From: an uncultured Candidatus Binatia bacterium
Lineage (GTDB): Bacteria > Desulfobacterota > Binatia > Bin18
DNA: 64,000 nt
Assembly: GCA_965214605.1 (NCBI GenBank)
Contig: OZ243961.1
Location: 2,080,001-2,144,000, forward strand
Direction: 5' to 3'
Part shown: piece after piece, positions 36,919 to 52,769 of the stretch
Layout of the letters: each line of letters begins with the position of its first letter
How positions within the stretch are numbered: the first letter of the stretch is position 1
Position numbers and translations under genes: made by a program
Notes under the pieces: generated by a model
What the model was told of the DNA's origin: nothing
The model's input: the letters and a program-made list of their open reading frames with translations, nothing else
The model's database searches: none

Positions 36919-36992
36919 TGTTCCTCCCCTACTCGTCTGCCTCTGAACGTTCTCTATCCTGGAATAAAGGATAAGGGAGAGGGAGCTCTCAC

Positions 36993-37736
36993 ATGATCAG
37001 TCGAATCGTTCTTATGTCGCTTGTGTTGCTGAGCCTGTGCTTTATGAGGGGCTGGTCGACTCCTGCCCAGGCTCAGTTCGACACCGGTCTTGAAGACTCC
37101 TTAGACGCACCCGCCCAGGTCTATAAAAATTCTCGGCTCGAAACCTTCAACGAAGCCATGTTTGACGTCAACCTGTGGCTGGACGAGAAACTCCTGCGGC
37201 CGGTTGCCAGGAGCTATGAAAAAGTCGTTCCTGAGGGCGCCCGTCTGGGCGCACGACGCTTCTTTCTCAATCTGGGCTTCATTCCGCGTGCCGCCAATAG
37301 CCTCCTTCAGCTCAAGTTCGACGGGGCGGCGCGAGAAGTGAGCCGCTTCATGCTCAACACGACAATCGGCGGACTCGGCTTCTTCGATGTGGCCAAGAAC
37401 CAGTTTGGGATTCAGGAGAGCAACGAAGACTTCGGGCAGACACTAGGCCATTACGGCGTAGAAGACGGAGGGTATCTTGTCCTCCCCTTTTTGGGTCCGT
37501 CAACCGTACGCGACACCGTGGGTTTTGTGATCGATGGAGCGATGGATCCCAAACAGTATATCCTGTCCGGCACACACAACTTTGCGATTAGTAGCGGAAC
37601 GACCGTCACCAACGCCGTCAACGAACGCTCGTTGAACCTAGAGCTGTTTGAGCAGGTTGATCGCTTCTCGCTGGATCTCTACAGCGCCGTCCAGGACTTC
37701 TACCTGCAGCGCAGAGAGCAGCTGATCGAGGAATAG
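36993..37736 (+). CDS. mlaA: MlaA/VacJ-family lipoprotein-like protein
   Basis: ETFNEAMF, RFMLNTTIGGLGFFDVA, EDFGQTLG, LPFLGPSTVRD, DLYSAVQDFYLQRR. Confidence 0.88.
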   Translation: MISRIVLMSLVLLSLCFMRGWSTPAQAQFDTGLEDSLDAPAQVYKNSRLETFNEAMFDVNLWLDEKLLRPVARSYEKVVPEGARLGARRFFLNLGFIPRAANSLLQLKFDGAAREVSRFMLNTTIGGLGFFDVAKNQFGIQESNEDFGQTLGHYGVEDGGYLVLPFLGPSTVRDTVGFVIDGAMDPKQYILSGTHNFAISSGTTVTNAVNERSLNLELFEQVDRFSLDLYSAVQDFYLQRREQLIEE

Positions 37737-37742
37737 GGCGGC

Positions 37743-38369
37743 ATGCGATATCACCGAGAGATGATGATGGAGTTATGCCGCCGTCCGGTCCAAGTCTGGA
37801 TTTGGCTCGCCTTGGGTTTGGTACTCGCCTGTGCCGGACCGGCACAGGCCGAGACTCCGCCCCAAATGACACGGGAGTTGATCGAGTCTATTATCGCCTG
37901 TGCAACAGCGGACGGGGCTCAACCGAGCGGCTGTGATGTTGAAAAAATCGAGGGGCATCTGGCCCTCGCCCAGCTCGCCCGCTGGCTGATGGGCCCCCAC
38001 TGGCAGGATCTAGGCCAGCAAAAACAGAACGATTTCGCTGCCTTACTCGCCCGCCTGCTGCGTGATGTCGCCTATCCGCGAGCGGCCGAGTTCTTATCCA
38101 GCAATCAAATTGTGTACGGCCAGAATCATGTTGACGGTAAGGAAGCTATTGTTGAAACCTCGCTCGTCAACGCCGAAGAAGGGCAGGTCGTGATCAAGTA
38201 CCGCTTACACCTCATTGACGATAGGTGGAAAGTCTGGGACGTGTATCTCGACGGGGTGAGCATGGCAGGCAACCTGCGCAAACAGGTTCAGTCTATCATG
38301 GCTCGCAAGTCCTACGGGGAGTTGGTTGAGCGTATGCAGAAAAAACTCAATTGGGACGATCCTCAGTAG
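37743..38369 (+). CDS. MlaC/Ttg2D-family lipid-binding protein (HpnM-like)
   Basis: LMGPHWQDL, YRLH....WKVWDVYLDGVSM; lies between mlaA and hpnN. Confidence 0.8.
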   Translation: MRYHREMMMELCRRPVQVWIWLALGLVLACAGPAQAETPPQMTRELIESIIACATADGAQPSGCDVEKIEGHLALAQLARWLMGPHWQDLGQQKQNDFAALLARLLRDVAYPRAAEFLSSNQIVYGQNHVDGKEAIVETSLVNAEEGQVVIKYRLHLIDDRWKVWDVYLDGVSMAGNLRKQVQSIMARKSYGELVERMQKKLNWDDPQ

Positions 38370-38386
38370 GCGGTGGAGAACCACGC

Positions 38387-41215
38387 GTGCCTTCGTCTGC
38401 CCCTTCTGCCCCCCTCTCTCCACCGCACTTGACGTGGGAACAGCATACCCTGCATTCCCTGGCCCGCCTGACCACGACCTATCCCATCACGATTCTGACC
38501 GTGTGCCTAGTCTTGGTCAGTGTGGCGCTGAGCTATACCGCCTCATATCTGGAGTTTGTCACTGGCCGGAATGAGCTCATTGACAGCAACAAGCCGTATA
38601 TCAAGCTAGAGGAGCAATACGCCGAGGAGTTTAGCAGCCTTGACCAGTTCTTCGTTGTGGTCGAGCCACAAGATATTGAGCAGGGCCAAGCCTTTATGGT
38701 CCGGCTTGGCGAGCTTCTGACCCGGGAGACGGGCTATATTGAGGACGTCTTCTATCAGGTTGATACCACCTCGCTCGACGGCAAAAAGCTCCTCTACCTG
38801 CCCACCGAGGACTTGCAGAGCCTATTCGGCGATATTTCCGACTCTCGGGATCTGATCCAGGAAATCACCGTCGCCCCGGGCCTCAACACCCTGTTTGAGG
38901 CTATTAACCGGCAGATCAGCGCCGCCACCGTCTCCCACCTCATTGGCAGCCTGTTGGGTCTAGGTCTTCCCGAAGACGAACCACAGGAGGAAAATCGAGA
39001 AACTCCGGACGAAACGCCGACGCCGCAGATCGGCCTTCTCAATTCTCTGCTGTATGAGATGGACCAGGCGCTCAGCAACCCGGCTCATCGCTATCAGTCA
39101 CCCTGGGAAGAGTTCTTTGGCGATACCCAAACGCTGTCGGACGAGGGCTTCCTCGTGTCCGGCAACCGTCAGTTTCTCTTCATGCTAGTCGAACCCGCAG
39201 ATCCGGAAGAGGCCGGACTGACCGAGCTGCAAGACGCCATTACTACGATTCGGCACATTATTCATGACTTGCGATCGGACTTCCCCGGACTCGACGCCGG
39301 TCTGACCGGCATTGAGGTCCTCGACACCGATGAGATGACCAGTGCCCAGAGCGATGCACCGGCGGCAACGCTCGCGACAGCGCTGGGTATTGGTCTATTG
39401 TATCTGACCTTTTTTCAGCGCATCAGGCACCCGGTTCTTATTCTCTCCTCGCTGCTGGTCGGACTATGCTGGACTATGGGCTTTGTCACCCTGGCGGTCG
39501 GTCACCTAACGATTATCAGCCTGTTTGTCGCTCCCCTGCTGCTAGGTTTAGCCGACGATTTCGGTGTCCACTTTATGACCCGCTACGAGGAAGAACGCGG
39601 CGCCGACAGAGACCCGATTGCTGCTCTCCATCAGGTCTATATTCATACTGGACCGAGCATTATCGCCGGGGCATCCACAACGGCTCTGGCCTTTGCAGCC
39701 ATTATGCTGGCCGATTTCCGAGGCATGCAAGAACTCGGCCTAATGTCCAGCGTCGGTATCTTGCTGTCCATGTTGGCCATGTTCAGCTTTCTGCCCGCTC
39801 TAGTCGTGGTAGTTGAGCGTATCCGTCCCTGGCGGGCGCACTCGACCCGCCCGAGTTTTTTGAGTACCCCCTTCACCGCGTTGGGGAGGCTGGTGGAGAA
39901 CAGGCGGCGGTCGGTTTTGGTGTTAGCTGGTCTGCTAACACTGGGGGCGCTGGGAGCACTCCCGACCGTTCGGTTTGACTACGACCTGCTCAACCTCCAA
40001 GCCCATGGCACCCCTTCGGTTGAGTGGGAGAGACGTATCATTGCCCATTCGGAACGCGCCTCCTGGAATGCCTTGGCAACGGCTTCAACCCCCCAGGCTG
40101 CCATGCGGAAAGCGGCAGCGTTTGAAGCCCTGCCAGTCGTCGAAACGGTCGAAAGTATGGCCTCTTTTATCCCCGCCGGTCAGGCTCAGCGGATGGCGCT
40201 GGTCCACGATCTACAGCCCCTGCTGGCTGACCTCCCCCCGGTTCTGGCGAGGCCCTCGCCCGTTATGGTGTTCGACCTCCAGCGTTCTCTTGATCAGATT
40301 CGGTTTAAAGTTCGAGAGAGTAATGAAGACTGGGACCCTGAAAAAAAACCTACAGAAAGTGAGTTGAGCACGGCCCGCAGCCGGCTGAAAACCATTGTCA
40401 CCCGTTTACAAAACCTCCCCCAGAACGAAGCCCGGGCTGCGCTCAGCCGGTTTCAGGCCGATCTGTTTCAAGATTTTGCCGATGTCTGGAGCCTCCTGTG
40501 GAATAATATCCATCCCTCCGGTCCAATTACTCTGGCCGATATTCCACCCCAGCTCAAAAAACGCTTTGTGAGCCGCAACGAGGACAAGTTCTTACTCCAG
40601 ATCTATCCCAAGCACAATATTCGTGAGCAGCAGGCGCTCGAAGCCTTCATCCAGCAGCTGCGCGAGGTTGACCCTGATGTCACGGGCTCGCCGGTCATTG
40701 GCTACGAGTCGATCCGTGCCATGCAGCAGGGCTATATCGAAGCCGCGATGTACGCCCTGATTGCGATTGTGATTGTCACCTTTAGTACCTTGCGGAGTGT
40801 CACCGATACCCTGCTTGCTCTCCTGCCGCTAGGTCTGGGGATGGTTTGGGCCGGCGGCCTGATGTGGCTGTGCAAGCTCCAGTTCAACGTTGCCAACCTG
40901 GTGGCCGCCCCCCTCATTATTGGCATCGGCATCGAAAACGGTATTCACCTCGTCCACCGTTTTCGAGAAGACCCGCAGACGACACCAGCCAGTTTAATCG
41001 CGGGCAGTACAGGCCAAGCTGTAGCCCTGTTTTCGCTAACGACTATGGTCGGCTTCGGTAGCCTGATGATCGCCAAATACTATGGCGTTTTTAGTATGGG
41101 CTTGCTACTGTCGTTGGCAGTAGGCGGCGTCCTGGTCGCCTCCCTTGTTGTGCTCCCGGCGTTTTTGTCTTGTCCGGCACGTCACAGGGCACCTTATGAG
41201 AGTGACCGCGCCTAG
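38387..41215 (+). CDS. hpnN: MMPL/RND hopanoid transporter
   Basis: Two 6-TM repeats with GLADDFGVH and GIGIENGIH motifs; hpn context; start uncertain. Confidence 0.85.
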   Translation: MPSSAPSAPLSPPHLTWEQHTLHSLARLTTTYPITILTVCLVLVSVALSYTASYLEFVTGRNELIDSNKPYIKLEEQYAEEFSSLDQFFVVVEPQDIEQGQAFMVRLGELLTRETGYIEDVFYQVDTTSLDGKKLLYLPTEDLQSLFGDISDSRDLIQEITVAPGLNTLFEAINRQISAATVSHLIGSLLGLGLPEDEPQEENRETPDETPTPQIGLLNSLLYEMDQALSNPAHRYQSPWEEFFGDTQTLSDEGFLVSGNRQFLFMLVEPADPEEAGLTELQDAITTIRHIIHDLRSDFPGLDAGLTGIEVLDTDEMTSAQSDAPAATLATALGIGLLYLTFFQRIRHPVLILSSLLVGLCWTMGFVTLAVGHLTIISLFVAPLLLGLADDFGVHFMTRYEEERGADRDPIAALHQVYIHTGPSIIAGASTTALAFAAIMLADFRGMQELGLMSSVGILLSMLAMFSFLPALVVVVERIRPWRAHSTRPSFLSTPFTALGRLVENRRRSVLVLAGLLTLGALGALPTVRFDYDLLNLQAHGTPSVEWERRIIAHSERASWNALATASTPQAAMRKAAAFEALPVVETVESMASFIPAGQAQRMALVHDLQPLLADLPPVLARPSPVMVFDLQRSLDQIRFKVRESNEDWDPEKKPTESELSTARSRLKTIVTRLQNLPQNEARAALSRFQADLFQDFADVWSLLWNNIHPSGPITLADIPPQLKKRFVSRNEDKFLLQIYPKHNIREQQALEAFIQQLREVDPDVTGSPVIGYESIRAMQQGYIEAAMYALIAIVIVTFSTLRSVTDTLLALLPLGLGMVWAGGLMWLCKLQFNVANLVAAPLIIGIGIENGIHLVHRFREDPQTTPASLIAGSTGQAVALFSLTTMVGFGSLMIAKYYGVFSMGLLLSLAVGGVLVASLVVLPAFLSCPARHRAPYESDRA

Positions 41216-41220
41216 GCTGC

Positions 41221-41724
41221 ATGCGGAAAATTACCCCCATGATCATCGGGACCGACTTTCTCAAGACGCTGCGTGCTGAAGGCTTCGATTTTTTCACCGG
41301 AGTGCCCTGCTCGCTGGTCAAGAGTTTGATTGCCCGCCTCGAAGAGGAAGGGCCGTATATTCCGGAAACCCGCGAAGACGCAGCGGTCGGCCTAGCGGCT
41401 GGCGCCTATATGGCCGGTAAACAGCCAGTCGTTATCATGCAAAATTCGGCCTTAGGAGTGTGTCTCAACGCCCTCGCCTCGCTGAGTCTGATCTACGATC
41501 TGCCGTGTCTGTTGCTCGTCACCTGGCGCGGTTATCAGGGAAAAGACGCCCCCGAGCATCTCATCATGGGAAACATCTCCCCCCGCTTATTCGAGACCTT
41601 GCGCATTCCGTATCGGGTGTTGAGTGTCGAGACTACCATGCAAGACGCCGGGTGGGCTGCCGATATCATCCATCACGGCAAAAAACCGGTGGCTCTGTTA
41701 CTCCCTCCGGGGGTGCTTGAGTGA
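41221..41724 (+). CDS. TPP-dependent phosphonopyruvate/sulfopyruvate decarboxylase, alpha subunit
   Basis: FFTGVPCSL, REDAAVGLAAG, MQNSALG, WRG....DAPEH. Confidence 0.88.
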   Translation: MRKITPMIIGTDFLKTLRAEGFDFFTGVPCSLVKSLIARLEEEGPYIPETREDAAVGLAAGAYMAGKQPVVIMQNSALGVCLNALASLSLIYDLPCLLLVTWRGYQGKDAPEHLIMGNISPRLFETLRIPYRVLSVETTMQDAGWAADIIHHGKKPVALLLPPGVLE

Positions 41725-42284
41725 AGCTGGCAGACGCCTTAGGGATAATGATTCCCCTGCTGCACGACGAGCTCGTCGTGCATGCCAACGGTTTTATTTC
41801 GCGTGAATCCTTCAATCTCAGTGACCGGCCGGGCAACTTCTATATGATCGGCTCTATGGGGCTTGCCTCATCTATCGGTCTGGGCGTTGCCCTCAATCGT
41901 CCCAATCGTCGTGTTGTGGTCTTTGACGGCGACGGCAATGTCCTCATGAATATGGGCTCCTTGGCACTGATTGGCGCCACCCAACCGCCCAACTTCGTTC
42001 ACATCGTTTTCGACAATGAAGCCTATGGCTCAACTGGTAATCAGCGCACGATCTCGGGTCAAGTCGCCCTGGAAGATATCGCCCGCTCCAGCGGCTACCA
42101 GCACGTCGGCAGGGTTGGCACACCGGGAGGTCTTAAAGCTGCGGCAGGCGAATTGCTCGGTCAGGCCGGACCCTCGTTTCTGTTAATTAAGATTGAACCT
42201 GACTGGCAAGAACGCAAAATCGGCCGTATCACGCACGAACCGCCCCAGATTGCGCGGCGATTTATCGAAGCCATTAAAAAATGA
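41721..42284 (+). CDS. TPP-dependent phosphonopyruvate/sulfopyruvate decarboxylase, beta subunit
   Basis: NGFISRE, NFYMIGSMG, DGDGNVLMN, DNEAYGSTGNQ. Confidence 0.88.
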   Translation: MKLADALGIMIPLLHDELVVHANGFISRESFNLSDRPGNFYMIGSMGLASSIGLGVALNRPNRRVVVFDGDGNVLMNMGSLALIGATQPPNFVHIVFDNEAYGSTGNQRTISGQVALEDIARSSGYQHVGRVGTPGGLKAAAGELLGQAGPSFLLIKIEPDWQERKIGRITHEPPQIARRFIEAIKK

Positions 42285-42375
42285 AGAAACGTCGAATGAT
42301 AAAACGCAACGGTCAAAAGGAAGACACGGGAAAATACGGTTCTTCACGTGTTGACCCTTGACTTCTGAGTTCTCC

Positions 42376-43449
42376 ATGCAGCCCATCCTCCTCAACCCCG
42401 GCCCGGTTAACGTCTCCCCGTTCGTACAAGAGGCCCTTTTGGGTGGAGACCTCTGCCACCGTGAAGAAGAATTCTCAAACCTGTTGCGTGCCATCCGCTC
42501 AAAACTCCTCAAGGCCTTTGCCCACCAACACTATACCTCGGTCGTCATCAGCGGTTCAGGCACCTCAGCGGTAGAAGCAATGGTGTCCTCAGCCCTGCCC
42601 CCAGGGAAAAAACTCTTGGTCATCAATAACGGTGTCTACGGCGAGCGTATGCTACGTATGGCTAGAGCTCATAGAATACCAAGTGTCGAATTGCGCTACA
42701 GCTGGACCGAGCCACCCGACGTCGGTCAGATCGAATCCAGGCTTCAGGCTGATCCGTCTATCGGCGGTGTCGCCCTAGTCCATCATGAGACAACCACCGG
42801 ACTGTTGAATCCGGTTTCCGAGGTCGGATCCCTGACTAGGCGGCTAGACCGTGTGTTCCTCCTCGATGCGGTCAGCGCCTTGGCCGGCGAAGATCTCGAC
42901 CTTGTTCGCGACCAGGTCGATCTGTGTGCCTGTACGGCCAACAAATGTGTGCAAGGCTTGCCCGGTGTGGCCTTTGTTTTGGTTCGGTCTGCCCTGATGC
43001 GGGCTATGCAACACCACGAACCCAGCTCGCTCTCTCTTCACTTGCCTCTCCACTGGGAAGCCCAGGAACGCAACAGTGTCCCTTTTACGCCGTCGGTGCA
43101 AACCTGGTACGCCCTTAACGCCGCTCTTGATGAACTCCTAGAGGAAACTGTGGCGGCGCGTATCCAGCGCTACCGGGCGGCCTCGCAACTGCTGCGGGCA
43201 GGTTTCGATCGCCTGGGGCTGCGGTTTCTTTTGCCGCCCGAACTGCGGGTCAATTCGCTCACCGCGCTGTTCTTGCCTGACGACATGAGCTATCAAGACC
43301 TGCACGACCAACTCAAGAAACGTGGATTTGTTATCTATGAAGGTCAAGGTCAGCTCCGTCCCGATATCTTCCGGATTGCCAACATGGGGCATCTGAACCT
43401 TGACGACTTTCGCCGCTTCCTCCAAAGCCTCGAAGACGTTCTGCGCTAA
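42376..43449 (+). CDS. 2-aminoethylphosphonate aminotransferase-like (class V PLP)
   Basis: LLNPGPV, SGSGT, NNGVYGERM, VHHETTTGLLN, DAVS, ANKCVQG, PFTP. Confidence 0.88.
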   Translation: MQPILLNPGPVNVSPFVQEALLGGDLCHREEEFSNLLRAIRSKLLKAFAHQHYTSVVISGSGTSAVEAMVSSALPPGKKLLVINNGVYGERMLRMARAHRIPSVELRYSWTEPPDVGQIESRLQADPSIGGVALVHHETTTGLLNPVSEVGSLTRRLDRVFLLDAVSALAGEDLDLVRDQVDLCACTANKCVQGLPGVAFVLVRSALMRAMQHHEPSSLSLHLPLHWEAQERNSVPFTPSVQTWYALNAALDELLEETVAARIQRYRAASQLLRAGFDRLGLRFLLPPELRVNSLTALFLPDDMSYQDLHDQLKKRGFVIYEGQGQLRPDIFRIANMGHLNLDDFRRFLQSLEDVLR

Positions 43450-43474
43450 TCTTTTCAGGGCGTACGTACACGTT

Positions 43475-44212
43475 ATGAAAGCCATTATTCTTGCCGCCGG
43501 TATCGGCAAACGCTTCAAAGCTCCCACCGACCAGATCCCCAAGTGTTTAATTGAAATACAAGGTCGAACCCTCTTAGAGCGGACCTTATCCGCTCTTGGC
43601 GCGGCTGGGGTTAGCCGGGCGGTGGTAGTCGTTGGCTATCGAGGTGAGATGATTGAGAACACAATTGGGGCGAGGTGTGGCCACGTCCAGGTCTCATACA
43701 TCACCAACGCCCGCTATGATCGGGGAGCGATCCTGTCGCTATGGAGTGCCCGCCAGGAATTTGACGATGATCTCCTTATCATGGATGCCGACGTCCTGTT
43801 CCCGACCGCAATGATCAGCCGTCTGGTCGAGTCTCCCCATCCGAACTGCTTTTTGCTCGACCCCAGCACAACTCACACCGGAGAAGAACAAATGCTGTTG
43901 ACCCGTGGCGGACGGGTGGTGACAATTGTTCGGGGGGGATCTGGGGACTATGATCTAGTCGGCGAGTCCATCGGGTTTCTCAAGATTTCCCGTCAGGATG
44001 CACCTCTCCTGCGCACAATTCTTGACGATCAGATTGCCCAAGGGCGGGATACGATCGAACATGAAGAAGCCTACCCGATGTTCCTCGCTCAGCGGTTTGT
44101 CGGTTTTGAGCAGGTTGAAGATCTTCCGTGGATAGAAATAGATTTTCCCCAAGATTTAGAGCAGGCCAAGCGGGAAGTTCTGCCACGTATTCTTGCTCTT
44201 GATCGGCCATAG
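43475..44212 (+). CDS. Phosphocholine/phosphonate cytidylyltransferase (LicC/PntC-like)
   Basis: KAIILAAGIGKR, PKCL, DADVLF, GESIGF, WIEIDFPQDL. Confidence 0.85.
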   Translation: MKAIILAAGIGKRFKAPTDQIPKCLIEIQGRTLLERTLSALGAAGVSRAVVVVGYRGEMIENTIGARCGHVQVSYITNARYDRGAILSLWSARQEFDDDLLIMDADVLFPTAMISRLVESPHPNCFLLDPSTTHTGEEQMLLTRGGRVVTIVRGGSGDYDLVGESIGFLKISRQDAPLLRTILDDQIAQGRDTIEHEEAYPMFLAQRFVGFEQVEDLPWIEIDFPQDLEQAKREVLPRILALDRP

Positions 44213-44252
44213 GCCGAATCCTCTTGTACCCTCTCCCTTCGTTACCAAAAAG

Positions 44253-46025
44253 ATGTTCGTGATGTCCAATCGAACGAAATGCGCCCACGAACATCTTTTA
44301 CTCCCCTCCCCCCTCAGGCCCCTAGTCCGCCTGTCTCCACCCGCCCTAGCAAGCCTGTTTGTCATTGTGGCCGGTCTCATTTTCTTTTGGCGACTGGGCG
44401 AAGGACCAATTTATCGGACCATGGAAGGGCGGGAAGCCCTCGTTATGCAAGAGATGCTGCGTACCGGCAATTGGGTGCTGCCTTTACGCAACGGAGAGAC
44501 GATTCCTTCCAAGCCGCCGTTGGTGCACTGGGTTGGTGCCGGCGTTGCCCATCTGAGCGGGGAGATGTCGGAATGGGCAGCCCGATTTCCGTGTGCTCTG
44601 TTCTCGGCCCTGAGTGTCGGCCTGACCTGTTTCCTCGGCTGTCGGGTGGCCAATCGCGAGGTCGGCATCCTGGCCTCCCTGCTTGTCCTCACCACACCTC
44701 TGTTTGTCGAAATGGCCCGTGAAGCCTGGGTGGATTCGGCCTTGGCCTTTTTTGTCCTAGCCAGCCTCACCAGTTTTGCCTGTATGTATAAAGCCGACGA
44801 ATGGCAGGGTTGGCGAAGCCTGGCCTTTGCGCTGTCCCTAGCCGGCGCAAGCCTCAGCAAAGGACCGATTGGTATCATTCTGCCCGCTCTCGTGATCGGG
44901 CTCTACCTCACGGCTCAGGGGCAACTGTCGCGCATCCGGCAGCTGTTGAGCCCAACCAACGTCGTGGTGGCCGTTGGCATTCCGCTGACCTGGTACGCGC
45001 TAGCGCTCAACCAGGAGGGGTGGGCATTTTTTCAGAAGCAGCTCCTACAGGAAAACATCCTACGCTTTACCTCTGGCTCGGGCAAACGGATCCCTTCCTC
45101 CGCTTTTTTTTTCTTGCCGTTTGTCTTAAACGGATTGCCCTGGAGCCTGCTGTTCGGCTTTGGCTTGTGGCACTTTGCCCGTCAGGCCCCCATCCGGGAG
45201 AAGGGGGTGCTGGCCCTGCTGTGGTGCCTGGCCCTCATCGCTTTTTTTTCGATCGCGGCGGGCAAGCGTGACGTCTATCTGCTGCCCCTGTACCCGGCAA
45301 TGGCATTGTTTGCTGCGGAATGGGGCTGGCCGCGGGTTCCCCGCCAGACCGCACCACTCGCCTCCTGGCTGAGCGCCGGGCTTGTCCTAACCGCTCTCGG
45401 TGCCAGCTTAGCGACGCTGTTGGCTGCAGTCTCGGTCGCCCTTGACTGTCTCACCATTGACTCGGCTGCGGTGGAGCTGGTTTTTGGCGAGGACAAATGG
45501 AAGAGTGCGGCCCGGTTCATTCGTTTTGTGGACGAGCAGCCGGTGTATGGCACGACCTTGCTGGCCGTCTTGTGCAGCTGTGGGGTGGGGGCGGTTTGGG
45601 AGACGACTCGGGGCTTTTGGCAGACAAGCCTGTGGCTGGTGCTCTGTATGCTCCTGCTGACGACCGCCGGTCTGTATCCTTTTACCCGGGCGTACGCAAA
45701 AGAGTTTAAATCCTTAACCGGCTTTGCCACTCAGATCAGCCAGGCTGTTGGAGCTGAACAGCCACTGTTCTTTTACACTCCACAGACCTACTCTTCGGAG
45801 TTTGACGAATTTTCTCAGATCTATTTTTACCTGAACCGTCCGGTTCGCCTTGCTCCGTGCGCCGAACACAGCGACTTTTCGCGCTGTCAACCTGGCTATT
45901 ACGTGCTCCGGGAGCGGTTTTGGCGGTCGCTCCAACACACCCCGAACACCCGTCTGGTGGTCGACAGTCAAAGCGGCTCAGGACCGGACGCACGGCCACA
46001 CCTGGTGCTGGTTCGACGGGATTAA
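44253..46025 (+). CDS. ArnT/GT83-family (GT-C) membrane glycosyltransferase
   Basis: EGRE..V.QEM...GNWVLP..NG....KPPL, SKGPIG, KRDVYLLPLYP; multi-TM; start uncertain. Confidence 0.88.
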   Translation: MFVMSNRTKCAHEHLLLPSPLRPLVRLSPPALASLFVIVAGLIFFWRLGEGPIYRTMEGREALVMQEMLRTGNWVLPLRNGETIPSKPPLVHWVGAGVAHLSGEMSEWAARFPCALFSALSVGLTCFLGCRVANREVGILASLLVLTTPLFVEMAREAWVDSALAFFVLASLTSFACMYKADEWQGWRSLAFALSLAGASLSKGPIGIILPALVIGLYLTAQGQLSRIRQLLSPTNVVVAVGIPLTWYALALNQEGWAFFQKQLLQENILRFTSGSGKRIPSSAFFFLPFVLNGLPWSLLFGFGLWHFARQAPIREKGVLALLWCLALIAFFSIAAGKRDVYLLPLYPAMALFAAEWGWPRVPRQTAPLASWLSAGLVLTALGASLATLLAAVSVALDCLTIDSAAVELVFGEDKWKSAARFIRFVDEQPVYGTTLLAVLCSCGVGAVWETTRGFWQTSLWLVLCMLLLTTAGLYPFTRAYAKEFKSLTGFATQISQAVGAEQPLFFYTPQTYSSEFDEFSQIYFYLNRPVRLAPCAEHSDFSRCQPGYYVLRERFWRSLQHTPNTRLVVDSQSGSGPDARPHLVLVRRD

Positions 46026-46206
46026 TTTGTCCCGAGCACAGACCGCCACTCGATACGGCTCGCTCAGTCTTATGATCGACGATCCGTCTGGATTCAAACT
46101 CACCTTGGCTCTCAGAGGTATTTTCGCTAATCTGACATCCCTGGGCTCATGGAGGCGTCAGTTGTTCGCACCTATTGCCTAGAACACCACAACGATAAGA
46201 GACCCT

Positions 46207-46971
46207 ATGGCTCCTGAGGCATCACCCTCTCCCTCCTCCCCTCCCCCGCTTGGAGAACGTCCGGCTGGCCTGGTACAGAGCGGCTTTACCGCTTGGCTGC
46301 GCCGGCGGCGGCGGATATTGCCCATTCCTCTGTGTGTCCTCGTGCTCATATTCCTTCCCCCCACCTACCCTCTGGCTAGCCCGAAGCTTGACTTGGTCAG
46401 CGATATCTTTGGCACAGCGGTGTGTCTGCTCGGTCAGTGGATGCGGGGCTGGGCCTGGGGGAGTAATGCCGAAGTCGGCAAATTTGGCCTACGTGAACGC
46501 GGTCCATACGCGCTTATGCGTCATCCCCTGTACAGCGGCAACTTTCTCATTGTGCTGGGATTAGTCATAGTCTACCATAACCTGTGGGTCTATCCACTCT
46601 TTCTTCTGCCCTTTGCCTATCTGTACAACGCCATTACCAAGATGGAAGAACAACGCCTACACTGGCGCTTTACCCACGACTACGAAGGCTATCGGGAAGT
46701 CGCTGTGCCCCGCTTTATCCCAGCCCTGGCGCATCTGGGCAGGGCGGTCGACACAACGCTGCCATTTGGCTGGAAGCTGGCGTGGCGAAAAGAGTACGAG
46801 TCAGTATGCGGCTGGCTAGCTGGCATTATTGGTATTCAGATCTACGAACAGGTTGAGGCGTATGGCTGGATCGTCACCTGGCCCTCCACCCGCCTGTGGT
46901 TCAGCCTCTTAGTCGTGATCGGCCTTGCCAATGTGAGTCTCAAGACGCTGGGACGCCTGTCACGGCGTTGA
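46207..46971 (+). CDS. ICMT/PEMT-family membrane methyltransferase
   Basis: GPYALMRHPLYSG, EEQRL...F...Y..Y...VPRFIP. Confidence 0.85.
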   Translation: MAPEASPSPSSPPPLGERPAGLVQSGFTAWLRRRRRILPIPLCVLVLIFLPPTYPLASPKLDLVSDIFGTAVCLLGQWMRGWAWGSNAEVGKFGLRERGPYALMRHPLYSGNFLIVLGLVIVYHNLWVYPLFLLPFAYLYNAITKMEEQRLHWRFTHDYEGYREVAVPRFIPALAHLGRAVDTTLPFGWKLAWRKEYESVCGWLAGIIGIQIYEQVEAYGWIVTWPSTRLWFSLLVVIGLANVSLKTLGRLSRR

Positions 46972-46975
46972 ACCT

Positions 46976-47863
46976 ATGACCGCTCTCAGGCGCAAACGCC
47001 TCATCGTCAATGGCGACGATTTTGGCCTGTCCGACCGGGTCAACGAGGCGATCCTCCACGCCCATCAGCACGGGATTCTGACCAATACCAGCCTGATGGT
47101 CGGCGCTCAGGCATGGCATGAGGCGGTCGAGTTGGCAAGGGCTACACCGAGCCTTCAGGTCGGGCTCCACCTGACCCTGGTCCAAGGTCAGTCGGTCCTA
47201 TCACACCGCCATATCCCACAGCTGACCGATCACAGCGGAAATTTTCTCCATAATCCGACCCGGGCCGGGCTGCGTTACTTCTTCTCGCCCCGCGCCCGGT
47301 CTCAAGTCCAGGACGAATGTCGGGCCCAAATCGAACGCTTTCTGGCCACCGGTTTACCGCTGGCCCATATTGATGGGCACGTCAATATACATCTGCATCC
47401 CGTCGTCTTGAACAGCCTGTTGGGTCTGGCCAAGGAATATGGCGTCCGGGCCATGCGGCTGACCCAGGAAGATCTGGCCTGTAGTCTGACGCTTGATCCA
47501 CGTGCTGCGATTCGCAAACGCTGGGAGTCCTTCATCTTTATCCGCCTGGCCCGACACGCGGAAAAGAAGCTGGCCGCGGCCGGCCTTGTCTGGCCGGATG
47601 CGCTGTTTGGACTACACCAGACCGGAAGAGTGGATGAACCCTACCTGCTGAAGCTCCTGCCCCGTCTCCAAGCCGGCGTTACCGAACTATACTGTCACCC
47701 CGCCTTTCTGCCCTGCCCGGAAGTCCAGCGCTGGACACCAGGCTATCGACGAGACGTCGAGTTAGCCGCCCTGACTAGCTGGGCCGTTCGGCAGATGCTC
47801 CAACACCAGGATATTGAGCTGATTGGCTACCGAGATCTGTACCAACAGGTTCATACCGCCTGA
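46976..47863 (+). CDS. hpnK: Hopanoid-associated deacetylase (YdjC/ChbG family)
   Basis: IVNGDDFG, GLHLTL, HIDGHVNIHLHP, ELYCHP; converges on hpnI. Confidence 0.88.
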   Translation: MTALRRKRLIVNGDDFGLSDRVNEAILHAHQHGILTNTSLMVGAQAWHEAVELARATPSLQVGLHLTLVQGQSVLSHRHIPQLTDHSGNFLHNPTRAGLRYFFSPRARSQVQDECRAQIERFLATGLPLAHIDGHVNIHLHPVVLNSLLGLAKEYGVRAMRLTQEDLACSLTLDPRAAIRKRWESFIFIRLARHAEKKLAAAGLVWPDALFGLHQTGRVDEPYLLKLLPRLQAGVTELYCHPAFLPCPEVQRWTPGYRRDVELAALTSWAVRQMLQHQDIELIGYRDLYQQVHTA

Positions 47864-47893
47864 GCGTCACCCATTCGCCCGCTATCCGGCCCT

Positions 47894-49084
47894 CTAGTCA
47901 CAGCCGGGCTCCGAGGTTTCGCTATGTGAGACGTCGGGCAAGACGTCTGCGGCGTCAATGAGCACCATCGTGCCATCCCGACGAACCCGAAAGGTATGCT
48001 CTCGCCAGCGGACGGTGTTCCCGCCTAGACTCCAGACCCAAATCCCAAACGATAAGAGATCGGTGATAAGGACAAGTCCAAACGTCGTCGTTAGGGGGAG
48101 CCTGACGCCCAGAAAATATCGCCCTAGCAGCGTGGCCGAGAGACAACGGACCGCCAGAGTCAGTCCGGACAGGACAGCTAGAGGTGTTGCCCAACCAGAC
48201 ACAAGCCCTAGCACGGCCCAGACCGTACCATACGTCACCACCGTCCCCACATAGCCGGACGGGCGGCATACGCGTTGGGTACGCGCCCAGCGCAGCTGGT
48301 GGTACAAAAGTCCCCGCAGACTCGCGACATCGGGATAGGTCTCTACAACATAGGGCAGGATGCGTGCTTGATAGCCGGCTTGAGTGGCCAAGTTCCCCAG
48401 ATAATAATCATCGGCCAGATAATCGGCCAGAGCCGCAAAGCCCCCAATCGCCTCAACGCACGAACGTGTCACCGCTATGGTCGCACCAAAGGCGTACCTT
48501 GTCCTCTCGATTTGGCTGGCAAGTAGGACAGAAGGCATAAAGGAGGTATTGATCAGCACTGATTCGAGGAGAGCGGGCAGGGGCTGTCGAGTGGCGCTGC
48601 GGTACGGACAGGTCACGACTCCAACCTGTGGGCCGCTCAGGGGAGGAATGATACGCCGGAGATAGTCCGAAGCGACCCGAACGTCGCTGTCGCTGATCGC
48701 AAAAATATCATACTTGGCCTGCTGTGACAGAGAGTGCAGGGTGCTCACCTTATAATTGCTGCCGATCACCTCGGGATTGACAACGAGCGAGATATCACAC
48801 TCTGGGAAGTCGTGCTGTAAGCGTTGGACGACTGTAATCGCGGGATCACGCGGATCGCGAACGCCGAACAATAGCTGAAAAGCTGGATAATCGATTCGAC
48901 AGAAACTCGCCAAATGCCCGTACAAGTCGGGCGTCATTCCCTTGAGGGGTTTAAAGACAGAAACCGGCGGACACGCAACTGGGGAAGCTGGAAGCTGTCG
49001 AAACAGTCGCCAGGCAGCATACACAGACAAGAGGTAATACAGACAGGCTATACATAACAAAACGGCGAAAAATGTCGTGGCCAT
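47894..49084 (-). CDS. hpnI: Bacteriohopanetetrol glucosamine glycosyltransferase (GT2)
   Basis: KPLKG, GSNYKV, SDSDVRV, LADDYYLG, HQLRWART. Confidence 0.88.
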   Translation of the reverse strand: MATTFFAVLLCIACLYYLLSVYAAWRLFRQLPASPVACPPVSVFKPLKGMTPDLYGHLASFCRIDYPAFQLLFGVRDPRDPAITVVQRLQHDFPECDISLVVNPEVIGSNYKVSTLHSLSQQAKYDIFAISDSDVRVASDYLRRIIPPLSGPQVGVVTCPYRSATRQPLPALLESVLINTSFMPSVLLASQIERTRYAFGATIAVTRSCVEAIGGFAALADYLADDYYLGNLATQAGYQARILPYVVETYPDVASLRGLLYHQLRWARTQRVCRPSGYVGTVVTYGTVWAVLGLVSGWATPLAVLSGLTLAVRCLSATLLGRYFLGVRLPLTTTFGLVLITDLLSFGIWVWSLGGNTVRWREHTFRVRRDGTMVLIDAADVLPDVSHSETSEPGCD

Positions 49085-49137
49085 AAGGTGGACAGACAGC
49101 GAGAGGAGTAATGCTCAGTCCCTTCTGGCAAGATGTC

Positions 49138-50583
49138 CTAGGCGGGTGGTGAGGCGCTCTTCCCAGTCATCTGACGTCGGGTGCGCATGGTCCGAAAAAA
49201 ATCTTTGCCTTCTTGCCACATCCGTTTTCGTTCTTCGGAATCAGTGGCCATCTTTTTAACGGCTTTCAAGATGTAGCGGGGACGCAGATAGTAGGAGGTG
49301 TAAAACCGCTCCACCGTCGAGAATATCTCCTCGCTCGACAGATGGGGATAATTCATCACACATTTTTGATAGCCCGTCTCGTCAACCATGTCTTCCGGTT
49401 TGATGAAGCCGTGCTCCACAGCGTGGTCGTAGAAGGCGGTACCGGGATAGGGCGAAGCTAAGGAGACCTGAATCGTCTCGGGGGCCATTTCTCGGGCAAA
49501 ACGCATGGTCTCTTGCATAGTTTCCCGCGTCTCACCGGGTAGGCCCAAGATAAACGTACCGTGAATCAAAATACCAAGCTTATGGCAGTCTTTGGTAAAG
49601 CGCCGTGCGGTTTCGAGCGCAACGCCTTTTTTAATGTTCTTCAGAATCTGGGCGTTGCCGGACTCATAGCCAATAACAAACAGGCGTAGTCCGCCCTCCT
49701 TCATGATCTTGAGCGTTTCGTAGTCAACATTCGCTCGCGAGTTTGTCGACCAACAGAGGCCCAGCGGTTTGAGTCGCCGGGCGATCTCCCGCGCCCGCTT
49801 GGGGTTGGCCGTAAAGGTGTCATCGTCAAAGAAAATCTCCTTCATACCCGGAAACAGACGGACCATTTCCCGGACCTCTGCAATGACATTGTCCACCGAG
49901 CGGGTCCGATACGCGTGACCAGTAGTGACCTGAGGCCACAGGCAGAAGGTACAGCGCGCCGGGCAACCACGGCCGGTATACAGGGACACATACGGGTACT
50001 GGCAGTAGGGGCTATTATACTTCCGGAAGTCCAGATCCCGGGCATAAATAGAGGTCACAAAAGGCAGACGGTCCAACTCCTCGCTGGTCAGCGGCGTCCG
50101 ATCGAGATTGTGCACAATCTGCCCATTCTTTCGATAGCTAATACCTCGAATCTGACCCCAGTCCAGGCCCTCGGCAACCTCTTTCATCGACCAGTCAAAC
50201 TCTTTGCGAGCAGCGATATCAATGGCTGTGGACGCTTGCAGGGTCTGGGCGGGCATGGAGGTTGGATGGCCGCCCACAAAAGCGACGACCGCCCCCGGAT
50301 TGCCGTCCTTGATCATCTCCGCGGTTTGCACATCCATTTTGAACGAGGGGGTACTGGTATGCAGGACAACGAAGTCATACGCCTTGGCAATCTCCACGCT
50401 CTGCGCTTGATTGAGCCCCTCAGGTGGAGCATCAAGCACACGGCTATTTTGAATCATACCAGCCGGATAACACAGCCAAGTTGGATACCAGAAGGACCAC
50501 ACCTCCCGCGTTGCCTGATACCGAGATCCCGCCCCACCGTCGAAGTTGTCGTAAGCCGGGGGGTTTAAGAACAACGTACGCAT
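49138..50583 (-). CDS. hpnJ: Hopanoid-associated radical SAM protein
   Basis: LFLNPP..NFDGGAGSRYQATRE..SFWYPTWL, CPARCTFCLWPQ. Confidence 0.92.
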   Translation of the reverse strand: MRTLFLNPPAYDNFDGGAGSRYQATREVWSFWYPTWLCYPAGMIQNSRVLDAPPEGLNQAQSVEIAKAYDFVVLHTSTPSFKMDVQTAEMIKDGNPGAVVAFVGGHPTSMPAQTLQASTAIDIAARKEFDWSMKEVAEGLDWGQIRGISYRKNGQIVHNLDRTPLTSEELDRLPFVTSIYARDLDFRKYNSPYCQYPYVSLYTGRGCPARCTFCLWPQVTTGHAYRTRSVDNVIAEVREMVRLFPGMKEIFFDDDTFTANPKRAREIARRLKPLGLCWSTNSRANVDYETLKIMKEGGLRLFVIGYESGNAQILKNIKKGVALETARRFTKDCHKLGILIHGTFILGLPGETRETMQETMRFAREMAPETIQVSLASPYPGTAFYDHAVEHGFIKPEDMVDETGYQKCVMNYPHLSSEEIFSTVERFYTSYYLRPRYILKAVKKMATDSEERKRMWQEGKDFFRTMRTRRQMTGKSASPPA

Positions 50584-50676
50584 TCCCTTCTCCTTACCTC
50601 ATCTGCATCCAAGTCGCCCCCTTACATAACAAAGAACGGACAGCCGGCATAGGGGGCGACGGCACAGCCCGACCGC

Positions 50677-51714
50677 CTAGGGCAGTGTCTCGGGTAGCAC
50701 CGGAGGAGGCTCCTCAGCCCGCCAGGCATAGCCGGCGCGTGTCAAGAAAACCAGACCGATCCCGTTATAGACCGCCTCCCGCGCCCGTTTCAGAACCATC
50801 AGGGCCAGCCCAGCCCCGACATCGATCCCGAGCATACGGCTCAAAAAGACCCCCGCGGTCTCTCTGACGCCCAGCGCACCGGGAATCACCAGAGCCGCAG
50901 CGGTCATAGGTTGCACCATGGATTCGATAATCAGCGCCTCGACCGGACTGACCCGTATACCGATCAGGGTAAAGATAACCCAGATTTCGACCGCTCCCAG
51001 CAACCAGCCCAACAGGTGGTACAGGGTTGCGGCGAGAAAGATATGCGGATTTCTGTCGTACAGCTGGCGCAACTGGGCATCGATACGCCGGGCCCCGGCT
51101 TGCCAGCGTTGCAGGGCGGACCAGGTTGGAAACCAGCGCCCCAGACCGCGAACAAGCTTTTCCATCAGACCGCGCCGCTGCCAATGGATCAGACCCAGGA
51201 CAAAGCCGTAGGAGACCGCCATTAGCAGACCCATCACCCACCAGCTGTGCAGCCCCCAGCCAAGGCGGAACAGAAAAAACGGCAGACCTATAAGAATAAA
51301 GATGACTTGAGACACGGTCAGCGCGGTTTTAGCCGCCACAACCGAGGCCATGCCCACCTCGGAACGAATCCCACGCCGGCGTAACAAGTAGACCTTGAAG
51401 GCTTCGCCGCCGATAGAGGCGGTCGGGGTGAGGTTATTGACCGACTCTCCAGCAATCCGGCTCAGCGAGAAATACCACAGCGGGATGGGGCGAACAGAGG
51501 CGTCTTGAGGAACTAGCCACGCCCAGCCTTTGGCGTCACATGCGGCAATAGCGGCGTAGGGCAGGAGCACGATTGGGGCGAACCAACCCAGCCGAACCAT
51601 GTAGCTGACAACATCAGACAGCCCTATCGTCCATGCCAAGACGCCGAGGAGGCCCAGGCCAACAGACACGGACAACAGTTGGATGCCACGGTGTTTGCTA
51701 GTGCTAATGGTCAT
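50677..51714 (-). CDS. Flippase-like / LPG-synthase TM protein (HpnL-like)
   Basis: GESVNNLTPTASIGGE, IPGALGVRE, KRARE; multi-TM; upstream of hpnJ. Confidence 0.8.
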   Translation of the reverse strand: MTISTSKHRGIQLLSVSVGLGLLGVLAWTIGLSDVVSYMVRLGWFAPIVLLPYAAIAACDAKGWAWLVPQDASVRPIPLWYFSLSRIAGESVNNLTPTASIGGEAFKVYLLRRRGIRSEVGMASVVAAKTALTVSQVIFILIGLPFFLFRLGWGLHSWWVMGLLMAVSYGFVLGLIHWQRRGLMEKLVRGLGRWFPTWSALQRWQAGARRIDAQLRQLYDRNPHIFLAATLYHLLGWLLGAVEIWVIFTLIGIRVSPVEALIIESMVQPMTAAALVIPGALGVRETAGVFLSRMLGIDVGAGLALMVLKRAREAVYNGIGLVFLTRAGYAWRAEEPPPVLPETLP

Positions 51715-52308
51715 GCGGGCGGGAGACTCATCAGGGCCGACTTAGGAATCTTGAGACTCCAAGCCCGCTAATTTTCGGAGCGCCGTACTCAATACGCCCC
51801 AGTCGTGAGGTCTCCGCGCACGTGCATGTCGGCAGCCACAGGGGCTGACACCGCTCAATAGCATCGGGTGAACAGGCCGGACAAATCCACCGCTTGGCCG
51901 CGGCCTCGGGACGACAAAAAACAGGCGCAGCAATGGAATGCATCCCTTTGGTTCGATAATGTCGGTCGAGTTCTTGGCCGATATCGGGCGACACCGTGCT
52001 CATATCAAACCTGGAGTTGCCTGGCGCAAGGCCAGCCAGCACGCCGAGGGGGATCGCCCGCAATGCGGCGTTATCGGCCAGAATGCTAAGCACAATCCCA
52101 TGTTGCTCGGCCAGGGACCAAGGCGTAGCCGCTCGTGTTGCACCACCCAAGCTGTCAGCCCGAGCGACTGTTCGATTGAAAACCGACGGGGAATGATCCG
52201 CCTGGGGCGAATGCTGGGCCAGCGGCAGCCCCATGTTGTCCGCACCAATAAGACCGTGCATAAGGAAAGACTACTCAAAAAGCTCAACAATAAAAACACG
52301 GCCCAACT

Positions 52309-52698: not shown

Positions 52699-52769
52699 AA
52701 CTCACCTCTTTGCTCGGAGACACTCCCGTTTCATAGCAGCTTAGCGGCTTGTCTGGGAGAGGGGAAACT

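Follow-up and report, generated by a model that had tools for sequence, protein, structure and literature searches.

An aminoethylphosphonate gene module embedded in a hopanoid gene cluster of a Candidatus Binatia bacterium points to an undescribed carbon-phosphorus membrane lipid

A stretch of 64,000 nucleotides (nt) from an uncultured Candidatus Binatia bacterium (the window; G000:C1:2080001-2144000 in a genome of 4.37 Mb) carries a gene cluster at window positions 36993-51714, in which predicted genes for the synthesis and activation of aminoethylphosphonate (AEP) lie between genes for hopanoid transport and hopanoid tailoring. Genes were identified from open frames and profile scores; the curated family models and their cut-offs were those of NCBIfam/TIGRFAM, and Pfam (PF) models were scored alongside. 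All 13 genes listed by an earlier reading of the window (the initial annotation) were found as open frames, and the gene order and family assignments that it had given were borne out. On the plus strand, mlaA is followed by an mlaC/hpnM-like gene, an hpnN-like gene, ppdA, ppdB, an AEP transaminase gene, a PntC-like nucleotidyltransferase gene, a GT-C glycosyltransferase gene, a methyltransferase gene and hpnK, which converge on hpnI, hpnJ and hpnL on the minus strand.

The cluster is headed by three lipid transport genes, all on the plus strand. The first (36993..37736) encodes an MlaA-family outer-membrane lipoprotein of the 'HpnS' type, a candidate hopanoid transport factor (PF04333, 216.5 bits), and the second (37743..38369) an MlaC-family periplasmic lipid carrier (PF05494, 75.6 bits; TIGR03481 HpnM, 46.4 bits against a cut-off of 160.1). 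The third (38351..41215) encodes a predicted RND (HAE3/MMPL) inner-membrane lipid exporter (TIGR03480, 562.1 bits against a cut-off of 751.85; PF03176 MMPL, 128.8 bits). As the HpnM and HpnN models were matched below cut-off only, the two proteins are called MlaC/HpnM-like and HpnN-like. The tailoring genes at the other end were assigned more firmly. HpnK (46976..47863, plus strand) is a YdjC-type deacetylase of the bacteriohopanetetrol (BHT)-glucosamine pathway (TIGR03473, 344.1 bits, cut-off 232.6). On the minus strand, HpnI (47894..49084) is the BHT glucosamine glycosyltransferase (TIGR03472, 387.4 bits, cut-off 310), HpnJ (49138..50583) is the B12-binding radical SAM protein of cyclitol-ether formation (TIGR03471, 723.3 bits, cut-off 577.6), and HpnL (50677..51714) is a flippase-like membrane protein of the LPG_synthase_TM family (TIGR03476, 194.5 bits against 195.65; PF03706, 106.9 bits, cut-off 33.4). 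HpnI, HpnJ and HpnK passed their curated cut-offs, and HpnL fell 1.15 bits under its own.

The spacing of 5 nt between the hpnN-like gene and ppdA, as initially annotated, was confirmed on the coordinates, and ppdA and ppdB overlap by 4 nt. The junctions on the plus strand range from -50 to +181 nt, and the largest gap (181 nt) lies ahead of the methyltransferase gene. A scan of positions 36400-52800 for promoters and terminators returned 6 promoter-like sites, compared with 6.9 expected, and no terminator in an informative intergenic place.

Four plus-strand genes in the middle of the cluster would together supply an activated AEP. PpdA (41221..41724) and PpdB (41721..42284) carry the N-terminal and C-terminal TPP (thiamine pyrophosphate) domains, respectively, of a phosphonopyruvate decarboxylase (Ppd) split into alpha and beta subunits. 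The subunits score 125 bits (PpdA, model positions 1-154) and 172.8 bits on the two halves of TIGR03297, whose cut-off of 312.5 applies to the single-chain form; the sulfopyruvate decarboxylase models give 123.1 bits (alpha) and 178.5 bits. The closest solved relative of PpdB is 9iz3_B (E 5.6e-35), named 'putative phosphonopyruvate decarboxylase beta subunit', and no other strong Ppd match occurs in the genome. The class-V AEP transaminase (AEPT; 42358..43449) scores 359 bits over the full length (1-355) of TIGR03301 (PhnW-AepZ), 1.8 bits under the cut-off of 360.8, and is the best AEPT match in the genome, with the runner-up at 196 bits. The fourth gene (open reading frame (ORF) from TTG at 43400 to 44212, likely start ATG at 43475) encodes a PntC-like phosphonate cytidylyltransferase. 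Its closest solved relative is the PntC Tde1415 (6pd1/6pd2; E 3.4e-14 for 6pd1, compared with 6.7e-9 for the LicC structure 1jyk), and its R38 and K48 occupy the alignment positions of R15 and K25, the catalytic residues of Tde1415 named in PMC6697681.

The conservation of this module was determined from 80 loci related to the window transaminase (the AEPT-seeded set). PpdB, AEPT and the nucleotidyltransferase (NT) occur together in 61 of the 80, as a conserved four-gene module ppdA-ppdB-aepT-NT. This result, together with the closeness of the PntC-like enzyme to Tde1415, upholds the earlier proposal that the decarboxylase, transaminase and PntC-type enzyme form an AEP-activation module, the activities of which are predicted from homology. 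The transaminase stands alone in 12 loci (labelled Nitrospina-type), and any of hpnN, hpnK, hpnI or hpnJ is present in 15. A catabolic role, in which the transaminase would act as a PhnW degrading AEP, was rejected: the score on TIGR02326 (276.4 bits, cut-off 400.8) is lower than that on TIGR03301, the gene lies between those of the decarboxylase and the nucleotidyltransferase, and the cluster contains no phosphonatase-type gene. As for a sulfopyruvate decarboxylase in a taurine route, the hidden Markov models (HMMs) do not discriminate, and the context of a PepM-like fusion, AEPT and nucleotidyltransferase speaks against it.

The initial annotation had suggested a search of the genome for pepM, the gene of phosphoenolpyruvate (PEP) mutase. 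One PepM-like candidate was found, but it is a non-canonical fusion that lies 1.2 Mb from the window cluster and falls short of both the motif and the HMM thresholds. This sole candidate is a PEP-mutase/nucleotidyltransferase fusion of 572 amino acids (aa; G000:C1:3324016-3325731, minus strand; L007:10014-11732). It carries IEDNIFPKRCSF at residues 128-139, that is, EDNIFPKRCS instead of EDKX5NS, at a position where solved PEP mutases have EDKxFPKxNS, and a six-frame scan found the canonical EDKX5NS nowhere in the genome. On TIGR02320 it reaches 286.5-289 bits, under the cut-off of 319.55; this is still its top model, followed by phosphonopyruvate hydrolase (256.1 bits) and PrpB (195.1 bits). 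As the fusion fails both EDKX5NS and the TIGR02320 cut-off, the formation of the carbon-phosphorus bond is itself a prediction. EDKX5NS is also the filter that defines PepM in the phosphonate censuses of PMC6697681 and PMC8942020, so the clade of the fusion would drop out of them. No paper on an EDN...CS variant of PepM was found in a literature search. In NCBI, homologues of the fusion are named 'isocitrate lyase/PEP mutase family protein' only.

With Cys in place of Asn, the PepM-like enzyme could catalyze a different reaction, and the downstream enzymes could handle another 3-substituted pyruvate, so that no AEP would be made. The motif EDNxxPKRCS does look like a cross between EDKxFPKxNS of PepM and EDQxxPKRCG of the lyases, and the variant is invariant: ED[N/S]xxPKRCS was found in 80/80 of the closest loci of the species-genome collection (with labels including Binatia, Nitrospirota, Polyangiaceae, Acidobacteriota, Planctomycetota and Bdellovibrionota) and in 120/120 of the 90%-clusters among the matches listed. 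The score under the TIGR02320 cut-off and the about equal scores of PpdA and PpdB on the sulfopyruvate decarboxylase models would also fit. However, solved PEP mutases match the fusion far better (5unc, 278 bits; 1m1b, 226 bits) than lyases do (≤134 bits). At 50% clustering, it is surrounded mainly by canonical PepMs: in the best 150 cluster representatives, a sample biased towards the query, Kx5NS was found in 80, the intermediate Nx5NS in 13, [N/S]x5CS in 21, other residues in 18 and no motif in 18. Moreover, about 60% of PepMs are likewise fused to a nucleotidyltransferase (PMC6697681), the transaminase reaches 359 bits on the AEP model, and nucleotidyl activation needs a phosphate or phosphonate. 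A product other than AEP is accordingly judged highly improbable.

The co-occurrence of the fusion with Ppd-beta was determined in 151 Binatia genomes of at least 85% completeness; class-wide samples were used here, as a phylum-wide sample held too few Binatia. With a Ppd threshold of 120 bits, chosen after the score list had been viewed, both genes were present in 56 genomes, the fusion only in 3, Ppd-beta only in 2 and neither in 90. The two are thus coupled in 56/61 genomes with either gene, and they lie ≤5 kb apart in 31/47 same-contig cases; the 16/47 distant pairs all belong to the window's own family. Since the fusion is nearer to PEP mutases than to lyases and co-occurs with Ppd-beta, it is read as a divergent PEP mutase, an activity that is predicted from sequence. 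In two further Binatia families (f3 and f90; L207, L208), the cluster consists of the variant PepM-like gene, ppdA, ppdB, the nucleotidyltransferase gene and a transferase gene, without an AEP transaminase, and might activate another phosphonate, for example a reduced or oxidised product of phosphonoacetaldehyde.

The PepM-like fusion is adjoined by a gene for a 327-aa cytoplasmic protein with repeats of the squalene-hopene-cyclase type (L007:8957-9940, minus strand; G000:C1:3322959-3323939). Such a small terpene-cyclase-fold protein is encoded beside the PepM-like gene in 36/40 Binatia-type loci (L117-L156) and inside the AEP/hopanoid cluster in L019 and L161. Its AlphaFold model (predicted local distance difference test score, pLDDT, 88) folds as an alpha/alpha toroid, with class II terpene cyclases as the nearest structures (7xqz, E 1.6e-5; 8paj, template-modelling score 0.62). 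An invariant DLDTTSHP stretch resembles the DxDDTA motif of cyclases. A homologue was sought beside the PepM-nucleotidyltransferase gene in Nitrospira (L048), where a 198-aa ORF is dissimilar (E 0.17).

The enzyme that would move AEP onto a lipid was sought through relatives of the cluster. In Nitrospira (L048) and Scalindua (L025), ppdA-ppdB-aepT-NT is followed directly by a gene for a CDP-alcohol phosphotransferase of 432-471 aa; in Nitrospira, this gene is followed by one for an HpnL-like flippase-type protein (HpnL model, 164 bits), with the PepM-like fusion encoded just upstream of the module. The window genome has one clear homologue of the Nitrospira/Scalindua transferase (36% identity), a DIPPS/AF2299-like CDP-alcohol phosphotransferase of 419 aa (G000:C1:4005630-4006886; PF01066, 38 bits against a cut-off of 22), which is encoded 1.9 Mb from the window cluster among unrelated neighbours and forms reciprocal best hits with the cluster-encoded enzymes. 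The family signature D-x2-D-G-x2-A-R-x(7-12)-G-x3-D-x3-D is present as DCIDGEVARVKFLESPLGAWLDITLD at residue 266, and the pattern also occurs in the L048 and L025 proteins. The closest solved relatives are AF2299 (4o6m, E 2.9e-21) and IPCT/DIPPS (4mnd, 3.3e-11). Across the AEPT-seeded set, a transferase gene is present in 49 of the 80 loci and an HpnL-like gene in 45, in each case 3' of the transferase gene. The 419-aa protein is therefore, by homology and gene context, the likely AEP-transfer enzyme. Inositol was considered as the activated alcohol and rejected for the window genome, where an inositol-3-phosphate synthase was not found (29.8 bits; no tblastn match). In L026 (14534-15607) and L028 (4140-5213), genes for such a synthase (511 and 501 bits) lie between the transferase gene and an hpnN-like pump gene, with an HpnL-like gene in the same interval in L026, a hint that these lineages use inositol phosphate as a substrate.

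The initial annotation had listed the GT-C and methyltransferase genes in one row with the AEP genes. GT-C (44193..46025, plus strand) is an ArnT/PMT-like membrane glycosyltransferase (PMT_2/PMT, PF13231, 64.3 bits; ArnT model, 107.5 bits against 567), and the methyltransferase (46207..46971, plus strand) is a membrane protein of the PEMT/ICMT/LmtA kind (PF04191 (PEMT), 31.3 bits; TIGR04571 LmtA, 60.9 bits against 325); with the ArnT and LmtA cut-offs far from reached, the likeness is one of fold and family only. GT-C enzymes use polyprenyl-phosphate sugars and not CMP conjugates. In the AEPT-seeded set, the pair is present only in L008, L016 and L019, and it is missing from most Binatia versions of the cluster. 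A GT-C-seeded search returned 5 related loci. The methyltransferase gene always follows the GT-C gene, the pair lies directly upstream of hpnK in L197-L201 and L204, and in L199 and L201 it adjoins hpnK, while the 8 kb or so upstream are free of AEP genes. GT-C was consequently rejected as the AEP transferase; a role of the pair in AEP transfer is unlikely, the likely transferase being the one encoded 1.9 Mb away. We read the pair as an accessory, hpnK-linked module for sugar or methyl modification. In some relatives this module is extended: in L016 and L198 (5726-10630) and in L199 (11759-16641), an ArnB-type aminotransferase-GT2 (ArnC-like) fusion, a GFO/IDH/MocA oxidoreductase and a second GT-C are encoded between the methyltransferase and hpnK, so that an Arn-like amino-sugar module is attached to a hopanoid gene.

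The same genes bear on the proposal that AEP decorates lipid A, lipopolysaccharide (LPS) or another envelope glycan, with the GT-C protein and methyltransferase as part of the decoration and the hopanoid genes as mere neighbours. ArnT and LmtA, which the two proteins resemble, are both modifiers of lipid A phosphate, the ArnB/ArnC-like fusion, oxidoreductase and second GT-C join the pair in three loci, and most characterized bacterial AEP decorations are on glycans (PMC6697681). However, the absence of the pair from most AEP-hpn clusters, its position beside hpnK without nearby AEP genes and the sugar donors of GT-C enzymes argue against this view, and family scans of the window genes found no LicD-like or sulfatase-type phosphotransferase in the cluster. 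A glycan or LPS acceptor is thus considered very unlikely. The known ArnT/LmtA modification of lipid A phosphate resembles the window pair in the GT-C fold, the ICMT/PEMT-type methyltransferase and the ArnB/ArnC-like partners of relatives, and it differs in that the window pair scores far under the curated cut-offs and lies beside hpnK rather than lipid A genes.

The linkage between AEP and hopanoid genes was evaluated across the class. In the nearest public relative (L008, labelled Candidatus Binatia; 86% identity over the transaminase), 13/13 genes are present in unchanged order, and mlaA upstream of hpnM/hpnN is kept in L008, L015, L018 and L019. In the 151 Binatia genomes, Ppd-beta was found in 58 and HpnJ over cut-off in 91 (a count that includes one unpublished genome, G280); 50 genomes had both, 8 Ppd only and 41 HpnJ only. 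Ppd and HpnJ share a contig in 38 genomes from at least 4 families with differing gene orders, at a distance of ≤24 kb in 38/38 and ≤15 kb in 34/38. The transferase gene lies ≤5 kb from hpnJ in 15 genomes and ≤30 kb in 31/45 same-contig genomes, and the 14/45 distant cases all belong to the window's family. The arrangement is more than chance, and the three loci, namely, the window cluster, the PepM-like fusion and the transferase, behave as one system.

The gene orders differ considerably. The window type is hpnN-[AEP]-hpnK facing hpnI-J-L. In L175, L177 and L192, hpnI-hpnJ diverges from a row of the variant PepM-like gene, ppdAB, aepT, the nucleotidyltransferase gene and the transferase gene. 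L205 runs from the PepM-like gene to a nucleotidyltransferase gene and hpnK, and further on to hpnI-J and then the transferase gene, whereas in L207 hpnK is followed by the PepM-like gene, ppdAB, the nucleotidyltransferase and transferase genes and then hpnL. L019 unites mlaA-hpnM-hpnN-ppdAB-aepT-NT, the gene of the small cyclase-fold protein, GT-C and hpnK, then hpnI, hpnJ and the transferase gene, in a single locus. In two families that lack both Ppd and a PepM-like gene (L202, L206), the transferase and HpnL-like genes still separate hpnI-J from hpnK. In a third family (L203), the transferase/HpnL-like pair is preceded by another putative donor set, in which genes for a HAD hydrolase, a nucleotidyltransferase and a class-III aminotransferase are joined by one that weakly matches a GFO-type oxidoreductase (24% identity). 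L026, an unrelated lineage labelled only 'uncultured bacterium', combines hpnH, shc, mlaE-F-D, an hpnM-like gene, the PepM-like gene, ppdAB, aepT, nucleotidyltransferase and transferase genes, an HpnL-like gene, the inositol-3-phosphate synthase gene and an hpnN-like gene, and the tail arrangement is the same in L028. The window genome itself holds the two hopanoid genes for which the initial annotation had suggested a search, shc (655.5 bits) and a homologue of hpnH (45% identity to L026 HpnH). Several loci labelled as metagenome-assembled genomes (MAGs) of 'uncultured Enterobacteriaceae' or 'Klebsiella pneumoniae' (L010, L014, L015, L125, L132, L133, L140, L143, L147, L161, L200, L201) have Binatia-like genes (56-79% identity), and these labels look wrong.

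The cross-genome comparison shows that the AEP-hpn linkage is kept across Binatia families despite the differing gene orders; the objection that it might not be conserved, which the initial annotation had raised against its own proposal, therefore fails. Adjacency could still lack functional meaning if the synteny was simply inherited within one class: the strong counts all come from one class, and relatives share order by descent. Against this, at least 4 gene orders (the window type; L175/L177/L192; L205; L207) keep AEP genes beside hpn genes, the linkage is seen again in L026 and L028, whose labels place them in other lineages, and the junctions in the window are tight (5 nt and -4 nt). Adjacency without meaning is therefore regarded as unlikely.

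The best explanation of the locus, which we hold tentatively, is an operon that combines head-group genes for membrane lipids with genes for lipid export. The homology-based gene identities, the conserved linkage and the joint occurrence of the three loci are observed, whereas the enzyme activities, the acceptor and the route of export are predicted from them. The linkage points to a carbon-phosphorus membrane lipid for which no product has been described so far. In the proposed pathway, the PepM-like fusion would make phosphonopyruvate from PEP, PpdA/PpdB of the window would decarboxylate it to phosphonoacetaldehyde, the class-V transaminase would convert this to AEP, and the PntC-like enzyme would activate AEP to CMP-AEP. 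The CDP-alcohol phosphotransferase would then move the phosphonyl-ethylamine group onto a lipid alcohol. This acceptor may be an extended hopanoid, either BHT-glucosamine or BHT cyclitol ether, produced by HpnI, HpnK and HpnJ. HpnL would flip the amine-bearing product, and HpnN, the MlaC-like carrier and MlaA would carry it to the outer membrane. We lean, short of even confidence, towards the HpnI/HpnK/HpnJ hopanoid as the AEP acceptor. The wider proposal that AEP-headed bacteriohopanepolyols are made by Binatia, and perhaps also by Nitrospira, Scalindua and Methylomirabilota-like bacteria, via the EDNx5CS PEP mutase clade, a DIPPS-like transferase and HpnL as a dedicated flippase is possible but rather doubtful.

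Besides the divergence of the PepM-like fusion, several observations weigh against a hopanoid acceptor. CDP-alcohol phosphotransferases with a soluble CDP-alcohol classically act on diacylglycerol (the Kennedy pathway). Both the product and the chemistry are predictions from the genes. HpnJ was not detected in 8/58 Ppd-bearing Binatia genomes, and the 41 genomes with HpnJ and no Ppd indicate that the hpn genes do not need AEP; as kin share synteny by descent, the counts also overstate independence. HpnJ was over cut-off in 0/5 non-Binatia carriers of the AEP, transferase and HpnL-like set. Among genomes of other phyla that carry the PepM-like fusion, shc was over cut-off in 23/40 of those tested (including the unpublished G363), and the transferase-bearing loci L182, L170 and L176 lie in genomes in which shc was not found; all three are MAGs, two of which have a transferase match with just 25-29% identity. 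As the AEP and transferase set occurs without HpnJ over cut-off and sometimes without detected shc, cyclitol-ether hopanoids cannot be the general acceptor of the enzyme family. The initial annotation had proposed that AEP is attached to a hopanoid or to a co-transported lipid; the hopanoid is plausible and no more than that because the AEP, transferase and HpnL-like set exists in genomes without detected HpnJ and, in some cases, without detected shc, and the co-transported lipid is a live alternative.

Such a co-transported lipid could be an AEP glycerolipid, the phosphono-analogue of phosphatidylethanolamine, made by transfer of AEP from CMP-AEP to diacylglycerol by the CDP-alcohol phosphotransferase, the reaction predicted for the 'Group 1' phosphonolipid clusters; the linkage would then reflect two co-regulated outer-membrane lipids that share HpnL, HpnN and the Mla-like export. 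Transfer from CMP-AEP to diacylglycerol is a known eukaryotic route, and diacylglycerol is universal. The set in Nitrospira and Scalindua without HpnJ and the three genomes without detected shc are consistent with this reading, and the core gene set matches the seven-gene 'Burkholderiales_CDP-OH' core (PMC8942020). However, it leaves unexplained the transferase and HpnL-like genes between hpnI-J and hpnK without phosphonate genes (L202, L206), the interleaving of AEP and hpn genes in several orders, and the presence of shc over cut-off in 14/17 tested genomes outside Binatia whose AEP locus includes the transferase. Moreover, the nearest families of the transferase (DIPPS, AIP/PIP synthases, AF2299) act on inositol-phosphate-type alcohols and not on diacylglycerol. 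An AEP glycerolipid is accordingly seen as a serious possibility, although one that we would not expect.

An AEP-bearing hopanoid would be of interest on several grounds. Hopanoids are major bacterial membrane lipids and geological biomarkers, and to our knowledge, no phosphorus-bearing hopanoid has been described. In the paper library that was searched, neither a phosphorus-bearing hopanoid nor this phosphonate-hopanoid gene linkage was found. Phosphonolipid clusters are abundant in genomes, and the products of large predicted groups have never been characterized (PMC8942020). The locus joins the two problems and offers CMP-AEP as the donor, candidates for the transferase and the flippase (HpnL), and an export route. 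If the proposal is true, HpnL would gain a function, a hidden microbial source would be added to the environmental phosphonate pool, and a new phosphorus-bearing family of biomarkers would be recognized. As the EDNx5CS clade spans several phyla and is dropped by EDKX5NS filters, the phosphonate capacity of nitrite oxidisers, anammox bacteria and soil Binatia may be under-counted. The carriers Nitrospira sp. NS4 and Nitrospira sp. Kam-Ns4a are not marked as MAGs in their record names and may permit direct lipid analysis.

Other features of the window were recorded alongside. A 176-aa ORF (51731-52261, minus strand), 16 nt from hpnL, covers no more of the 6-phosphogluconate/3-hydroxyisobutyrate dehydrogenase family than its NAD-binding N-terminal domain; the ORF has counterparts of 56-57% identity in L013 and L015 and is either a short protein or a remnant. 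The cluster is flanked by a gene for B12-dependent methionine synthase on one side and genes for MeaB and methylmalonyl-CoA mutase on the other (28995-32525 and 56904-59966), which, with the B12-binding HpnJ inside the cluster, may be a coincidence. Positions 400-23600 resemble a mobile or defence island, with genes for an ArdC-like antirestriction protein/metallopeptidase, a ParA-like ATPase, Schlafen/AlbA_2, a resolvase, DndB, a prokaryotic E2 and JAB protein with a ThiF/E1-like partner, an IrrE-type M78 peptidase, a 1354-aa helix-turn-helix (HTH) protein and a DNA methylase. The guanine-plus-cytosine content reaches 0.68 at 2-4 kb, compared with about 0.57 elsewhere.

The cluster was also compared with known systems. 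The hpnI-hpnK-hpnJ(-hpnL) route to BHT-glucosamine and BHT cyclitol ether has been worked out in Burkholderia, and the Binatia clusters differ in that phosphonate genes and the CDP-alcohol phosphotransferase gene are interleaved with it. The function of HpnL is called 'unclear' in bioRxiv 10.1101/2025.07.29.667474, the text of which makes no mention of such a transferase ('phosphon', 0 occurrences). The same preprint describes HpnN-HpnM-HpnS (MlaA-like) as a candidate hopanoid transport pathway. A matching row of mlaA-like, mlaC-like and hpnN-like genes heads the window cluster, whereas the transport genes here run straight into AEP biosynthesis, and the HpnM and HpnN models are matched under their cut-offs.

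The 'Group 1' or 'Burkholderiales_CDP-OH' phosphonolipid clusters, a grouping that PMC8942020 credits to Yu et al., are predicted from a seven-gene core that includes an alpha-ketoglutarate-dependent oxygenase, and their product is uncharacterized. Both Group 1 and the present system have a Ppm-nucleotidyltransferase fusion, Ppd, AEPT, a stand-alone PntC-type enzyme, a CDP-alcohol phosphotransferase and a second lipid-related gene. Family scans found no alpha-ketoglutarate-dependent oxygenase among the window genes, to which this search was confined. In contrast to Group 1, Ppd is split in two, and the central part of the set is embedded in the hopanoid cluster. Group 1 has its seven-gene core in one neighbourhood, whereas here the set is scattered over three loci, the fusion and the transferase lying 1.2 and 1.9 Mb away, respectively. 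The Ppm is also of the EDNx5CS and not the EDKx5NS type and would be removed by the filter of PMC8942020 itself.

Among individual enzymes, the window cytidylyltransferase has its best solved relative in Tde1415 PntC of Treponema denticola (6PD1/6PD2; PMC6697681), aligned over residues 26-265 with counterparts of R15 and K25 kept; the similarity is low (56 bits), and the window enzyme stands alone, whereas Tde1415 is fused to AEPT. The 419-aa transferase shares a cytosolic N-terminal domain, a transmembrane catalytic domain and the signature motif with AF2299 and the IPCT/DIPPS of Archaeoglobus (4o6m, 4mnd). Those enzymes take inositol- or glycerol-type CDP-alcohols, whereas here CMP-AEP is the only activated alcohol-like donor encoded nearby.

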